34,194 nucleotides of DNA, from the IMG/VR virus record IMGVR_UViG_2541047826_000010; one strand, given 5' to 3'. Of the stretch, positions 1,065-31,858 are shown in pieces. The stretch is from a virus (Duplodnaviria; Heunggongvirae; Uroviricota; Caudoviricetes). Under the pieces are notes generated by a model that saw nothing but the letters and a program-made list of their open reading frames with translations, had not been told where the DNA came from and did not search any database. Within the stretch, counting starts at the first letter, position 1; each line of letters starts with the position of its first letter. A program made the position numbers and the translations under genes.

Positions 1065-1454
1065 TTACTCTTTTTTCTCCGTATCTGCATCGGGTTCATC
1101 AGCAAATAGCTTGCCCTGCATCCGATCCAGTTCTTCTTTTCTTACCCGCTTAACCACGCTGTAGACCCACTGAAGCGAAACACCAAATTTGCGGGCCAGT
1201 TCGTGGTGGTTGCGTCCGTTAAACTCCCTGAAGATTTCCCGGTCGCGCTGACTGACCTTCCATACCATGCCCATCGGGAAATAAACGTTTTGCCCGCCCC
1301 AGACCTGCATCATTCGGTTCGCGACGGCCTGACCAATCTGGTCGGCAACTTCGGGCTCAATATCAATAATCTCGCGAACGGTCTCAGAGGTATGCTGTGC
1401 CAGTTCCACCAGGAGTTCCGGCCCCTTACTTCGAAACTGATTCAGGTCGCTCAT
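1065..1454 (-). CDS. mor: Mor/C-family transcriptional activator (Mu middle-operon-regulator type)
   Basis: 129 aa; GGQNVYFPMG and REIFREFNGRNHHELARKFGVSLQWVYSVVKR match the Mor/C family signature (Mu Mor: GGQVYIP, NDFNGRN, C-terminal HTH). SD GGGAG 7 nt upstream of the ATG. Confidence 0.85.
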   Translation of the reverse strand: MSDLNQFRSKGPELLVELAQHTSETVREIIDIEPEVADQIGQAVANRMMQVWGGQNVYFPMGMVWKVSQRDREIFREFNGRNHHELARKFGVSLQWVYSVVKRVRKEELDRMQGKLFADEPDADTEKKE

Positions 1455-9090: not shown

Positions 9091-9142
9091 GTCACATTTC
9101 CATTTTTGCAATATGTGATAACCTGTTGCATATGTGGAAAAT

Positions 9143-9331
9143 TTATGCCGCATTTGACGTGGGTTTTAATCCCAGTTTTACGGCAATTTCATGGGCTTTG
9201 CCGTAACGAGCTTTGGTCTGTCCATTGAGAACACGATAGACCTCATTGCGGCTGTAGCCGTGTTCTTCGGCCCAGCGGGTAAACGTGATACCACGCTGAC
9301 GGAAGAGATTTTTAACTTGTTCGGAAGTCAT
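9143..9331 (-). CDS. ner: Ner-like DNA-binding protein (HTH), first gene of the early operon
   Basis: 62 aa; RGITFTRWAEEHGYSRNEVYRVLNG...AHEIAVKLGLKP resembles the Ner/Nlp HTH arrangement; SD AAGGAG; divergent from the repressor, as Mu ner is. Confidence 0.65.
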   Translation of the reverse strand: MTSEQVKNLFRQRGITFTRWAEEHGYSRNEVYRVLNGQTKARYGKAHEIAVKLGLKPTSNAA

Positions 9332-9378
9332 TGTTGTCTCCTTTGTTGATGCAATGATGTTTGTTTTATATGTGATAG

Positions 9379-9408
9379 ATTATGAGAACTATTGTTCTCA
9401 TTGTCAAT
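9379..9408 (-). promoter_or_regulatory. early promoter with embedded operator palindrome
   Basis: On the minus strand TTGACA (plus 9403-9408) and CATAAT (plus 9379-9384) separated by 18 bp; the spacer carries the 20-bp near-palindrome ATGAGAAC-TATT-GTTCTCAT (9382-9401). Confidence 0.5.
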
Positions 9409-9417
9409 GAGGTTTAT

Positions 9418-18137: not shown

Positions 18138-18939
18138 ACTGGCGTACTGCATGACGCTTCCCCCGAAGCGGGCAGTCAGTTACCTGAAGTCCAAAGGGTA
18201 TCAGATTACCTGGGACTGGGAAGAAATGTGGCAGGAGGCCCATGCCCGCGCCTTTACCGTTGCTAAAGTGACCCGCCTGGATATCCTGGAAGATATTCGC
18301 GGGGCACTGCAGCAGGCTGTCGATGAAGGAAAAACCGATCGCTGGTTCCGGCAGGAGCTGGAGCCGGTGCTGAAGCGTAAGGGATGGTGGGGACCACGTG
18401 ACACGACTGACCCGGTAACGGGTAAGCCGGTCACCATTCAGCAGGGCAGTCCGTGGCGGCTCGATACCATCTTTCGCACCAATATGTCCGTACTCTACAG
18501 CGCCGGTCGTTGGGCGGAACAGATGGAAAACGTCGACGACAGGCCGTACTGGATGTATACCGGCATCAACGACAGCCATACCCGCAGGAGCCATCTGGCG
18601 CTGCATGGTCTGGTGCTGCGCTGGGATGACCCGTTCTGGCAGGCATTTTACCCGCCGAACGGCTGGCGCTGCCGCTGTAGTGTGATTGCCCTGAGTGCGG
18701 CGGATGTCCGTGCCCGTGGCCTGAAGGTTATCAGCTCCGGCTCTGCCATGGGCCAGGAACTGAAACTGGTCTCAGAGAAAACCGGCGAAATGCGGAACGT
18801 GGCCACCTTTAATACCGGCACCACGAAGGTGACCACCGACGTCGGCTGGTCTTATGCACCGGGGGCAGCATACCGTCCCGACCTGGCCCGCTATCAGGGT
18901 ACGCTTCAGCCACTGGCACAACAGGAACTGAGAGGATAA
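18118..18939 (+). CDS. head morphogenesis protein (Mu F / gp30-like)
   Basis: YWMYTGINDSHTRRSHLALHGLV... and CRC motif typical of the Mu F family; ATG 18118 overlaps the portal 3' end. Confidence 0.8.
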   Translation: MSVTTAELAYCMTLPPKRAVSYLKSKGYQITWDWEEMWQEAHARAFTVAKVTRLDILEDIRGALQQAVDEGKTDRWFRQELEPVLKRKGWWGPRDTTDPVTGKPVTIQQGSPWRLDTIFRTNMSVLYSAGRWAEQMENVDDRPYWMYTGINDSHTRRSHLALHGLVLRWDDPFWQAFYPPNGWRCRCSVIALSAADVRARGLKVISSGSAMGQELKLVSEKTGEMRNVATFNTGTTKVTTDVGWSYAPGAAYRPDLARYQGTLQPLAQQELRG

Positions 18940-18941
18940 CA

Positions 18942-19400
18942 ATGGCTTCCGATAACCTGGTCAGTATCACCATTAACGATAAATCCCTGCGCCGGAGCCT
19001 CCGTGCGCTGGATCTTGCTGCCACAGACCTGGAGCCCGCGATGCGCAAAATCGCCGGAACCCTGCTGGCGGAAACACAGTTTAACTTTCTTGATGAGGGG
19101 CGTCCGGGGTGGATCCCCTCGCTGGCAGCGGAAGAACGTGACGGGCAGACACTGCAGGATACCGGGCGTCTGATGGGGTCAGTATCAACCGACCATGACG
19201 ACCGGCAGGCTGTTGTGGGGACCAACGTTGTTTACGGTGCCATTCACCAGTTCGGGGGTAAAACGGGGCGTAATGAGTCTGTTGAACTTCCGGCCCGCCC
19301 GTTCCTGCCGGTGACGGGGGATGGAGAACTACAGCCTGAAGTGGTAATCCCCATCCTCGATACCATTGTCCGCCATCTTGAATCAGCGGCCCGTCGCTGA
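18942..19400 (+). CDS. virion morphogenesis protein (Mu G-like)
   Basis: 152 aa; VVYGAIHQFGG motif and position after F match the Mu G family. Confidence 0.7.
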   Translation: MASDNLVSITINDKSLRRSLRALDLAATDLEPAMRKIAGTLLAETQFNFLDEGRPGWIPSLAAEERDGQTLQDTGRLMGSVSTDHDDRQAVVGTNVVYGAIHQFGGKTGRNESVELPARPFLPVTGDGELQPEVVIPILDTIVRHLESAARR

Positions 19401-19446
19401 GTTTTCTCTCTTCAGGCGGGTGATTTATCATTGCCAGCGAATGAGG

Positions 19447-19491
19447 GGCTGTATTACCTTTATAAAGGCTTTACAGCCTCTGTTTTATAAC
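19447..19491 (+). promoter_or_regulatory. nested palindrome plus -10-like element in the G-I spacer (candidate head-operon late promoter or terminator, copy B)
   Basis: GGCTGTA-tta-CCTTTATAAAGG-ctt-TACAGCC (7-bp outer stem around a perfect 12-bp palindrome), then TATAAC at 19486-19491; CCTTTATAAAG resembles the CCTTTAATATC box of copies C and D. Confidence 0.35.
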
Positions 19492-19614
19492 CGCCTCCGG
19501 TTCACCGCATTGCTTTCCCTGTCCTTCTCCCCTGATGTTTTCTAAAGCAGATTAAAATCGCCGGGCCTGCATTTCTCACAAACTGTCTCCGACAACATAA
19601 CGCGGGACAGCAAA

Positions 19615-20730
19615 ATGTCAGCCATTCACATTTTTAAAGCCGGTACTCATACCGATATGCACGGCAAAAAACTGCCGTTCACGCCAGACGATCTTGCCGC
19701 CTGCGTGAAAGCCTATGACCCGTCCGTCCATGAAGCACCACTCGTGATTGGTCATCCCAGAACGGAAGACCCGGCGTGGGGCTGGGTGAAAGCCCTGTCG
19801 CTCAGCGGCGTCGATCTGATGGCAGAGCCTGCCCAGCTGGACCCGCAGTTTGCTGAGATGGTCACCGACGGACGATTCAAAAAAGTGTCCGCCTCTTTCT
19901 ACCTCCCGGATTCACCGTCCAATCCGAAGCCCGGCGTGCTCTACCTTCGCCATGTGGGCTTTCTCGGGGCACAGCCACCTTCCGTCAAGGGGCTGAAACA
20001 GGTGTCCTTCAGTGAGCAGGAAGAAGGTGTGGTGGAGTTCGCCGACTGGCAGGCCATCACGAATGCCTCCCTGTGGGGAAAGCTGCGCGATTTTCTGATC
20101 GCCCGCTTCAGTCTGGACGAGGCAGAAAAAGTCCTGCCGGAATGGCAGCTCAACAGTCTGCGCGAAGAGGCGTACCGCGACACACTGTCGCAGGATGCAG
20201 CAGGTGCACAATTCAGTGAGACAGGCCCGGGGCCGTCTTCCGCAAGTAACGAGGAATCATCGATGACAAAAGAAGAGATTGAAGCCCTTCAGGAGGAGAA
20301 CCGCCGCCTGAAGCAGCAGGCTGCTGATCGCGATGCGCGTGATGCACAGGTCAGACAGGAGCAACTGCATAAGGACAATGTGGCCTTTGCAGAAAAACTG
20401 GTCGCAGAGGGCCGTCTGGCTCCCCGCGCCTCCTCCGTGGTGGTTGCCCTGCTGGATGCCGTCGCCGGTGGCGACAAGCCGGTGGAGTTTGCTGAGGGGG
20501 AAAGCCGCACACCGCTGGCCACCGCCTTTCGTTCATTGCTCTCCGACGGGGAGCCGGTGATGAATTTCGCCGAACAGGCCACAAAAGAGCGTGTCGGCGA
20601 CACGGTGAAGGTGGATGTGGCAGAGTTTGCGGAAGCCGATCCTGAGCGTCTGGCCCTGCATCAGAAAGCAGTGGCCCTGTCCAAAAAAGAAGGCATCAGC
20701 TATGAGGCTGCTGTCGCACGCTGCCTGTAA
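19615..20730 (+). CDS. head protease/scaffold protein (Mu I-like)
   Basis: 371 aa; N-terminal protease-like domain, C-terminal E/A/R-rich coiled coil typical of scaffold; precedes the major head gene. Confidence 0.75.
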   Translation: MSAIHIFKAGTHTDMHGKKLPFTPDDLAACVKAYDPSVHEAPLVIGHPRTEDPAWGWVKALSLSGVDLMAEPAQLDPQFAEMVTDGRFKKVSASFYLPDSPSNPKPGVLYLRHVGFLGAQPPSVKGLKQVSFSEQEEGVVEFADWQAITNASLWGKLRDFLIARFSLDEAEKVLPEWQLNSLREEAYRDTLSQDAAGAQFSETGPGPSSASNEESSMTKEEIEALQEENRRLKQQAADRDARDAQVRQEQLHKDNVAFAEKLVAEGRLAPRASSVVVALLDAVAGGDKPVEFAEGESRTPLATAFRSLLSDGEPVMNFAEQATKERVGDTVKVDVAEFAEADPERLALHQKAVALSKKEGISYEAAVARCL

Positions 20731-21707: not shown

Positions 21708-22046
21708 ATGGGAACCACTCAGCAGGTCATTCTGATCACAACCGTAACGGCAGGGGCAGCACTGGCACAGCAGCGTTTTGTCGGGGCAGATAATACCCCC
21801 TGTAAAGCCGGTGCCGCAGCGCTCGGGGTTGCCGAAGTGGATGCTGTTACCGGCGACAGCACGCCGGTGAGCGTTCTGGGCATTATTGCTGTCGAGGCCG
21901 GGGCCGCTGTCAGCCGTGGTGTGGCTGTTCAGTCAGATGCTCAGGCCAGAGCCGTGCCGCAGTCCGGCGACGGTAAATCCTGTGGTATTGCACTTGATGA
22001 AGCCGGGGGTGAAGGCGACGTCATTCGTATCCTGCGCGGGGTGTGA
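21708..22046 (+). CDS. small Gly/Ala/Val-rich head-associated protein (possible decoration/cement protein, DUF2190-like)
   Basis: 112 aa, immediately after the major head gene with SD AGGAGG. Confidence 0.5.
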   Translation: MGTTQQVILITTVTAGAALAQQRFVGADNTPCKAGAAALGVAEVDAVTGDSTPVSVLGIIAVEAGAAVSRGVAVQSDAQARAVPQSGDGKSCGIALDEAGGEGDVIRILRGV

Positions 22047-25437: not shown

Positions 25438-25460
25438 AGGGGCTCCGGCCCCTTCTTCTT
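25438..25460 (+). terminator. candidate intrinsic terminator after the sheath/tube block
   Basis: AGGGGC-TCCG-GCCCCT hairpin (25438-25453) followed by TTCTTCTT. Confidence 0.45.
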
Positions 25461-25505
25461 AATCTCCTTTAATATCCGTCACGCGCTTCTCCCGACATAC
25501 TGCCC
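25457..25505 (+). promoter_or_regulatory. candidate late promoter, tail side (conserved bipartite motif, copy C)
   Basis: TCTTAA-N3-CCTTTAATATC-N20-ATACTGCCC; identical boxes and spacing to copy D; 23 nt upstream of the chaperone ATG with SD CAGGAG in between. Confidence 0.45.
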
Positions 25506-25528
25506 TGAACTTACACAGGAGCACAATC

Positions 25529-25864
25529 ATGTCACAGACCCCATCCGATACTTTTAAATTGTCTTATCCCTTCACCACTGCTGCAGGCACCAGAATTGAG
25601 CTGGTTGAACTGAAACGCCTGACGGTAAAAGACCTGAAGCAGGTGCGCAAAATCAGCAAAAACCCGGCAGACTGGGACGAACCGCTGATTGCCCGCAGTA
25701 CTGGTCTTCTCCCGGAAGATCTCGACAATATGGATCTGGCTGATTACCTGCAGTTACAGAAACGATTTCAGCTCATCACGGGGATGGGTGAGAGCAACCA
25801 GGGCGCTGACGCAGGCGCAGGGGCTGCTGGCGAGATGGTTCCGGTTTCAGCCGGGGGAGATTGA
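25529..25864 (+). CDS. tail assembly chaperone (P2 gpE-like)
   Basis: 111 aa; TFKLSYPF...IELVELKRLTVKDL...LLPEDLDNMDLADYLQL matches the gpE-family pattern; sits between the tube and tape-measure genes. Confidence 0.7.
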   Translation: MSQTPSDTFKLSYPFTTAAGTRIELVELKRLTVKDLKQVRKISKNPADWDEPLIARSTGLLPEDLDNMDLADYLQLQKRFQLITGMGESNQGADAGAGAAGEMVPVSAGGD

Positions 25865-31807: not shown

Positions 31808-31856
31808 TCTTAAACGCCTTTAATATCAGCGTTCCCGCACGGGGGCAATACTGCCC
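31808..31856 (+). promoter_or_regulatory. candidate late promoter, baseplate side (conserved bipartite motif, copy D)
   Basis: TCTTAA-N3-CCTTTAATATC-N20-ATACTGCCC; the downstream box lies inside the hairpin GGGGGCA-ATAC-TGCCCCC that abuts the W start codon. Confidence 0.4.
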
Positions 31857-31858
31857 CC

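Follow-up and report, generated by a model that had tools for sequence, protein, structure and literature searches.

Putative Mor-dependent late promoters with predicted leaderless and fold-back starts in a BcepMu-like prophage of Escherichia coli

In phage Mu, the Mor site of the promoter Pm is 16 bp long and consists of 5-bp inverted repeats around a G/C-rich 6-bp spacer; it spans -51 to -36, with its center at -43.5, in a promoter that has a -10 and no -35 (PMC4390567, PMC4287176). Proteins of the Mor/C family touch two adjacent major grooves, sites A and B, according to a cryo-EM preprint (bioRxiv 10.1101/2025.05.02.651988). The C protein of Mu recognizes TTAT-N5-6-ATAA and carries a clamp-binding motif, QPDLF (PMC12867686).

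Phage P2, whose tail genes are like those of the prophage described here, has the late promoters PP, PO, PV, and PF. These respond to a zinc-finger activator, Ogr, at another site that lies further upstream, TGT-N12-ACA near -55. The GenBank record of P2 places the start of the V operon at the first base of the V coding sequence, and this serves as a precedent for a leaderless baseplate operon in the phage from which this tail type derives; a literature search on leaderless P2 gene V returned nothing. The cI mRNA of phage lambda is an example of a leaderless mRNA. Fold-back inhibition of read-through transcripts was reportedly described by Davis, Simons and Kleckner in 1985 for the IS10/Tn10 transposase: the ribosome-binding site is paired with bases that lie just 5′ of the native start, and only properly initiated transcripts are translatable.

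Here we describe a 49-bp element in the window, by which we mean the whole stretch of 34,194 nucleotides that was analyzed. We consider it very likely that this element acts as the late promoter of a transposable prophage of the BcepMu type, present in four copies and served by a single Mor-type activator. Mor binding, activator dependence, and the start sites are what we infer from the sequence. On this evidence the element would be a member of a known promoter class, the Mor/C-dependent promoters, with the Pm type used as late promoters in a single-activator cascade. Such a cascade has two tiers (early to Mor to late) in place of the three tiers of Mu.

The prophage and its four copies of the element

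The window corresponds to a BcepMu-like transposable prophage of E. coli. Over its tail half the identity to Escherichia phage PhiKM is 98.6%, and 639 of 5426 complete E. coli genomes (∼12%) carry the region around the 49-bp element; an identical prophage is inserted between ycaL and aroA. The early operon lies on the minus strand, from ∼9331 down to 1065, and encodes a DDE transposase, an ExeA-like ATPase, Gam, GemA, and several uncharacterized small proteins. The late genes, of which the holin at 12143 is the first, follow on the plus strand, and they fall into four blocks, with the order holin/lysis, terminase, portal, F, and G in the first; I/scaffold, capsid, sheath, and tube in the second; gpE/E′, tape measure, U, X, D, and V in the third; and W, J, I, and fibers in the fourth. 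Both the order of the late genes and the four intergenic gaps match those of BcepMu. Between the repressor-like gene and the lysis promoter, 9382-12012 is a variable cargo slot, in which the window differs from both strain 4/1-1 and KP12, where the equivalent slot holds a DNA adenine methylase. In the window it contains two ORFs (328 and 196 aa) without a Pfam match and a terminator at 11500-11517.

The preliminary description had placed the architecture TCTTAA-N3-SCTTTAAWATC-N20-ATRCTGYCY before three late operons. When we searched the window, the pattern was found without a mismatch at 12073-12121, 25457-25505, and 31808-31856, each time on the plus strand, with none expected by chance: 100 dinucleotide shuffles gave 0 matches, and at ≤3 mismatches the window held no further site. 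Copies C and D have the same three boxes, as had been stated, and the TTAA cores of the two upstream boxes are spaced by 10 bp, in agreement with the separation of about one helical turn that had been proposed. The gene contexts named for the three copies, namely lysis, tail chaperone, and baseplate, also held. The number of copies is four, however. The additional one, copy B, emerged at a relaxed mismatch limit; it lies in the G-I spacer, 26 nt 5′ of the gene I ATG, and has the form TTCTAA-AGC-AGATTAAAATC-N20-AAACTGTCT with identical spacing. It departs from the pattern at 6 positions, and first-order Markov simulations gave an expectation of 0.02 such matches per window. All four copies are intergenic, on the gene strand, and directly 5′ of operon-initial genes:

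12073-12121 (+): copy A, candidate promoter of the lysis/head-packaging operon, exact pattern match; dyad CTTAA-CGCGCT-TTAAA at 12074-12089, TGn at 12109-12110, -10 GATGCT at 12112-12117; predicted start ∼12124, holin ATG at 12143
19540-19588 (+): copy B, candidate promoter of the head (protease/scaffold I) operon, 6 mismatches at the same spacing; dyad TCTAA-AGCAGA-TTAAA at 19541-19556, -10 CAAACT at 19579-19584; predicted start ∼19591, gene I ATG at 19615
25457-25505 (+): copy C, candidate promoter of the tail chaperone/tape-measure operon, exact pattern match; dyad CTTAA-TCTCCT-TTAAT at 25458-25473, -10 CATACT at 25496-25501; predicted start ∼25508, gpE ATG at 25529
31808-31856 (+): copy D, candidate promoter of the baseplate (W-J-I-fiber) operon, exact pattern match; dyad CTTAA-ACGCCT-TTAAT at 31809-31824, -10 AATACT at 31847-31852; predicted start 31859, the A of the gpW ATG

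Copy B also replaces an earlier candidate in the same spacer. There, CCTTTATAAAGG plus TATAAC had been described as a rearranged copy of the element; we rejected CCTTTATAAAGG as a promoter variant since it forms the apex of a hairpin. The terminator-like hairpins near the operon ends are as follows:

19383-19400 (+): small hairpin that overlaps the gene G stop codon and has a T-run after it; weakly terminator-like
19444-19481 (+): long imperfect 36-bp palindrome, with CCTTTATAAAGG at its apex, followed by CUGUUUUAU (a U-run)
25438-25453 (+): intrinsic terminator hairpin GGGGCU-CCGG-CCCCU, closing the preceding operon

The hairpin at 19444-19481 folds at -19.6 kcal/mol (z = -3.75), with 0 of 200 shuffles as stable. 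A stable hairpin that contains G+C, with a U-run directly after it, makes this structure terminator-like, and it is most likely the terminator of the first late operon. Its palindrome core, TTTATAAAGGCTTTAC, is conserved in BcepMu (L003, ∼18720-18760) and in other loci. The smaller hairpin upstream of it was not significant (-8.8 kcal/mol, z = -1.5). Before copy C, the hairpin at 25438-25453 reaches -12.8 kcal/mol (z = -3.2), and its T-run extends into box 1 of the copy; the order of terminator and then box is also found in BcepMu. The terminator hairpins ahead of copies B and C would serve to separate the operons. As a side observation, the palindrome at 19444-19481 sits at the center of the prophage, in the G-I spacer, and the strong gyrase site of Mu (L005, 17879) lies in the same spacer; a terminator is nevertheless a simpler reading than an analogue of the gyrase site.

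Promoter anatomy and the candidate activator

Each copy contains an imperfect 5-6-5 dyad, nTTAA-N6-TTAAn (with a CTAA core in copy B), and in all four the dyad center is 30.5 bp 5′ of the first base of the -10 hexamer. The hexamers GATGCT (after TGn), CAAACT, CATACT, and AATACT have an invariant A at position 2 and an invariant T at position 6. At the place where a -35 was sought, 17 bp upstream, we found AATCCT, AATCGC, TATCCG, and TATCAG, which match TTGACA at no more than 2 positions. A scan of the window for consensus -35/-10 promoters called none of the four copies, which is consistent with the absence of a -35. Relative to the predicted +1, the dyad center is near -43, over the missing -35. 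The downstream box had been said to contain a -10-like ATACT in the preliminary description; a -10 hexamer is indeed present, but the trailing G-Y-C-Y is better read as an anti-Shine-Dalgarno segment or discriminator. A further reading, in which a phage sigma factor would recognize the boxes in the manner of a -35, was rejected as the window has no sigma gene.

This anatomy is close to that of Mu Pm. In the Mu genome (L005, 9173-9188), Pm reads AGTAA-AGCCGG-TTAAT with the -10 TATCCT, and the loose pattern T[AT]A-N6-TT[AT]A-N24-A-N3-T, derived from the window, finds it at identical spacing. Both have a -10 and lack a -35, and they share a 16-bp imperfect dyad with the core TAA-N6-TTA, a distance of 30.5 bp from the dyad center to the -10 hexamer, and a Mor-family activator whose gene closes the early operon; the Mu site also adjoins or overlaps a terminator, as copy C does. 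They differ in their half-sites, nTTAA/TTAAn in the window and AGTAA/TTAAT in Mu, and in what they drive. Mu has one Pm, which drives the gene for the second activator C, whereas the window has no C gene, and its four copies would drive the morphogenesis and lysis operons directly.

The C-dependent late promoters of Mu are likewise four in number; among them are one ahead of the lysis genes, one within the G-I spacer ahead of I, and one in the baseplate region, and they too have a dyad that overlaps the -35. In contrast to the C site TTAT-N5-6-ATAA, which we saw at Mu Pmom, the cores in the four copies are TTAA-N6-TTAA (CTAA in B). These cores are closer to the TAA-N6-TTA of Pm than to the C site, hence the window copies combine a Pm-like sequence with what appears to be a late function. 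The tail promoters of Mu also lie elsewhere than those of the window, which precede gpE and gpW, and the window has no mom promoter.

The candidate activator gene is the final gene of the early operon and adjoins the prophage end:

1065-1454 (-): the only Mor/C-family activator gene of the window, 129 aa, candidate for all four promoters; Pfam Mor, E = 1e-43

When we searched the window by tblastn with its own protein, Mu Mor, and Mu C, there was a single Mor/C match, so that the earlier remark that the window has one Mor/C homologue was borne out. The RefSeq annotation of an identical prophage agrees with this assignment. The protein is 30% identical to Mu Mor and 37% identical to Mu C over the C-terminal 79 residues, which places it about equally distant from both. 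BcepMu gp01 is 54% identical to it, and the position of the gene is alike. Residues 113-117, QGKLF, align with the QPDLF motif of MuC, where Mu Mor has QPSLL. With this C-like Q-x-x-L-F motif, the single activator of the window may, by analogy with MuC, couple late transcription to replication.

Taken together, three sequence features of Mor/C-dependent promoters are found here: a -10 without a -35, a 5-6-5 dyad near -43.5 as counted from the predicted start, and a candidate activator encoded by the same prophage. The proposal of a late promoter family with the Mor homologue as candidate activator is in keeping with the computed anatomy, geometry, and conservation. We propose that a single Mor-family protein, produced from the end of the early operon, would bind the dyad via two adjacent major grooves and recruit the RNA polymerase of the host in the way that Mu Mor acts at Pm. 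This would turn on the four operons directly, without C as an intermediate: the operon for lysis and packaging, that for the head, that running from the tail tube to the baseplate hub, and that for the baseplate wedge and the fibers. Four late promoters with a likely single activator would also offer a handle for inducing or silencing particle production.

One further feature of copy A concerns the opposite strand. Read on the minus strand (12042-12090), its dyad has a CAGGAT at the correct distance, directed towards the divergent ORF 11536-12012 (-), which encodes 158 aa and has a GAGGAG Shine-Dalgarno sequence. The dyad could be a shared bidirectional Mor site; the chance of such a -10-like match is ∼1 in 16, and KP12 has no such arrangement.

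Conservation in related prophages

To collect relatives, we used a sheath-protein search, which yielded 80 loci from Enterobacterales, Burkholderiales, Chromobacterium, and one Pseudomonas MAG (1.65 Mb in total). The motif search across the prophage and these 80 related loci showed that the architecture is kept at syntenic positions. In the 1.65 Mb, the loose pattern had 200 gene-strand matches and 30 on the opposite strand, counts for which the pattern was derived from the window, some positions were fixed by construction, and the related sequences were not independent. In the loci analyzed, 172 of the gene-strand matches lay just 5′ of an orthologue: 18 before holin, 46 before I, 56 before E, and 52 before W. 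Across 138 non-redundant instances, information was high at both arms, at an A two bases past arm 2, and at the -10 (A-11/T-7), and was near zero across the 20-bp spacer. Because this set had been selected with the pattern, we also aligned 56 non-redundant upstream regions of W by their ATG, with no use of the motif. The same positions stood out, with A-47 in 54 of 56, T-40 in 50 of 56, and A-11 in 49 of 56. Box 2 is class-specific across hosts, with GATTAAAAG at I and CTTTAA(A/T)AT at holin, E, and W. Among ∼50 further variants of the holin promoter from viral contigs, the boxes are fixed and the spacer drifts.

BcepMu itself carries the following copies, and a fourth, after the terminator before gpE, is degenerate:

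BcepMu, before the holin: box GCTAAAGCCGATTAAAAGACC
BcepMu, G-I spacer: box CGTAAAGCCGATTAAAAGACC
BcepMu, between V and W: box TTTTAGCCGGCTTTAATATCC

Our searches of the literature for BcepMu late promoters, the motif strings, and phage PhiKM found no description of such promoters. In the start-site table of uninduced B. cenocepacia J2315, a BcepMu lysogen (PMC4603805, Table S3), no start falls at the predicted late-promoter positions, a purely negative result that fits silent, activator-dependent promoters in these uninduced cells. The same table lists gp20 starts just 5′ of the lysis promoter on the same strand (PMC4603805), which makes read-through toward the holin a real possibility.

A subset of the relatives has lost the head genes. 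Loci L017, L019-L031, L037, L046, and L052-L057 (Brenneria, Pectobacterium, Samsonia, and Lonsdalea) gave no match to head genes G and I and retain the holin, the sheath-to-fiber genes, and this promoter family; L017 still has its transposase and Mor. These clusters look like tailocin-like derivatives. In Pectobacterium, Brenneria, and Lonsdalea, the head-less derivatives still have promoters of the holin, E, and W types, along with a P_I-type promoter ∼750 bp before the sheath gene. The relatives range across Enterobacterales, Burkholderia, and Chromobacterium, and they include such tail-only clusters. We also noted an 8.2-kb contig titled Arthrobacter sp. GMC3 (L082), with 97-100% protein identity to the tail region of the E. 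coli prophage; its place in an actinobacterial assembly is probably due to contamination.

These comparisons bear on the idea that the repeats are module-boundary sequences with no regulatory role, kept by recombination among mosaic phages. The copies do lie at the lysis, head, tail, and baseplate junctions, and the head-less derivatives are joined near the P_I-type copy. We nevertheless find this idea scarcely credible, as the spacing to the -10 is fixed and the 20-bp spacer drifts freely, the spacing of the W copy to the start codon is constant from E. coli to Burkholderia, and the matches favor the gene strand by 200 to 30.

A late promoter could also be activated by another early protein or by a host factor such as IHF or Fis, and the A/T-rich boxes and the uncharacterized small proteins of the early operon would allow for this. 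Against such an activator, the 5-6-5 dyad has the same build, and lies at the same distance from the -10, as the Mor site that experiments have defined at Mu Pm. Moreover, the BcepMu boxes, GTAAAGCCGATTAA, nearly repeat the Mu Pm sequence, GTAAAGCCGGTTAA, which argues for Mor, and Mor adjoins several of the head-less clusters. Pseudomonas phage JBD25 (L088, B3-like) provides an additional comparison. Its Mor is more divergent, with 41% identity to that of the window, and its copies share another box, CTTCCAAAAGAC, at 13337, 21757, and 27255, in the pre-lysis, G-I, and pre-tape-measure gaps, 19 nt 5′ of -10-like hexamers and thus at the same distance as in the window. A change of box alongside a divergent Mor is what co-evolution of activator and site would produce. 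With these points in hand, we regard an activator other than the Mor homologue as very unlikely and retain Mor as the candidate. As a point against the proposal, in Chromobacterium sp. CV08 (L073) Mor is divergent to the tail gene cluster, and in the 235 bp between them (9114-9348) we saw no TAA-N6-TTAA motif; either the site has diverged or the arrangement is different.

Predicted start sites, leaderless gpW, and fold-back hairpins

We predicted the starts at ∼7 nt after the T of the -10, near 12124, 19591, 25508, and 31859. This map includes two predicted features, the leaderless start of gpW and the anti-Shine-Dalgarno discriminators. At gpW, the T of the -10 is 6 nt before the ATG, and there is no Shine-Dalgarno sequence. 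Since the predicted +1 is the A of the gpW ATG, this suggests that the gpW mRNA is leaderless, and the W promoters of 43 non-redundant relatives imply leaders of 0 to 2 nt. The baseplate operon of P2 is leaderless as annotated; there the leaderless gene is V and in the window it would be W. In Burkholderia-type phages and in JBD25, gene I is arranged like gpW, with its ATG directly after the -10.

When we folded RNA across the four copies, we found a hairpin over the 3′ part of each:

12117-12139 (+): UGUCUCC / GGAGACA, pairing 7 bases before the copy A start with the holin Shine-Dalgarno sequence
19583-19610 (+): copy B bases -8 to -1 paired with the Shine-Dalgarno region (GGGA) of gene I
25494-25533 (+): pairing of the copy C -10/discriminator with the gpE Shine-Dalgarno sequence and AUG
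31841-31858 (+): GGGGGCA-AUAC-UGCCCCC around the copy D -10, ending at -1 before the gpW AUG

For copy A, the RNA that includes the -10 and discriminator folds at -12.2 kcal/mol (z = -2.9), and from the predicted start this falls to -0.5. The corresponding values are -10.7 kcal/mol (z = -2.85) versus -3.9 for copy B, and -12.3 kcal/mol (z = -3.6) versus -1.4 for copy C. Because the pairing bases lie 5′ of the predicted starts, these three hairpins would form only in read-through RNA, and RNA begun at the promoter would be largely unfolded, with its ribosome-binding site free. The arms of the copy A hairpin are conserved, with compensatory outer pairs in relatives, and RNAalifold returned a consensus of 8 pairs for the I hairpin, 4 of them with compensatory changes. 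RNAalifold gave no consensus structure for the E-promoter leaders of relatives, since the pairing register differs between clades. Across relatives, the mean probability that the ribosome-binding site is unpaired was 0.32-0.44 in read-through RNA and 0.56-0.66 in RNA from the predicted start; with the upstream 25 nt shuffled, it was 0.41-0.55. Fold-back inhibition would be a plausible second layer on the A, B, and C promoters. The likeness to IS10 is that bases just 5′ of the proper start pair with the ribosome-binding site; IS10 protects an insertion-sequence transposase, whereas the window would protect three phage late operons, a case that rests on predicted starts.

The hairpin of copy D is of another kind, as it surrounds the -10 and ends at the start codon. 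It folds at -15.1 kcal/mol (z = -3.0), and among 43 relatives the W-promoter hairpins have a mean z of -2.7, with p ≤ 0.05 in 70%. Its stem takes different forms by clade (GGGGGC/GCCCCC, GCGGC/GCCGC, GAGGGC/GCCCTC, and GGCGA/TCGCC). Because the stem positions shift by 2 nt between clades, we dropped a count of covariation in a fixed register and replaced it with folding of each sequence against shuffles.

Significant hairpins over the 3′ part of every copy, and compensatory changes across relatives in those of I and W, raise the question of whether the element is chiefly an RNA signal, for processing, antitermination, or translation, within long polycistronic late transcripts. However, the conserved positions are those of a strand-symmetric DNA dyad and a -10 signature (-11A/-7T), the boxes lie outside any conserved pairing, and the register and partner of the hairpins vary between copies. 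In addition, an Rfam scan of the whole window found no family at threshold, copy C follows a terminator, and in the head-less clusters the element is kept as the sole signal before the tail genes. An RNA-level role as the main function therefore seems highly improbable to us, and we prefer to see the hairpins as a layer that has been added to a promoter.

A more speculative proposal, which we consider possible though rather doubtful, is that late promoters of the BcepMu/B3 type and the tail-only clusters derived from them carry a built-in translational license. The 6 to 8 bases between the -10 and the start would act as an anti-Shine-Dalgarno segment (copies A, B, and C), or alternatively a hairpin arm around the -10 would abut a start codon at +1 (gpW, and gene I of Burkholderia and Pseudomonas phages). 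Read-through RNA, whether from the preceding operon or from outside, could then not be translated at the first gene, and Mor-started RNA would be open or leaderless. If true, this license would shield a randomly inserting prophage from lethal expression of its holin and structural genes by host transcription. If confirmed, the leaderless gpW and the anti-Shine-Dalgarno discriminators would mean that fold-back protection, described for insertion sequences, is found in transposable phages as well.

Lastly, the promoter map would correct start-codon calls. For instance, the annotated start of BcepMu gp32 (L003, 18850) lies inside the predicted -10 GATGAT, and the third in-frame ATG, at 18862, fits both the N-termini of homologues and the predicted +1. 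This indicates that gp32 is probably mis-started and leaderless, with its true start at 18862. In JBD25, the gene I ATG at 21792 directly follows the -10 CAGAGT, which is itself embedded in a hairpin.
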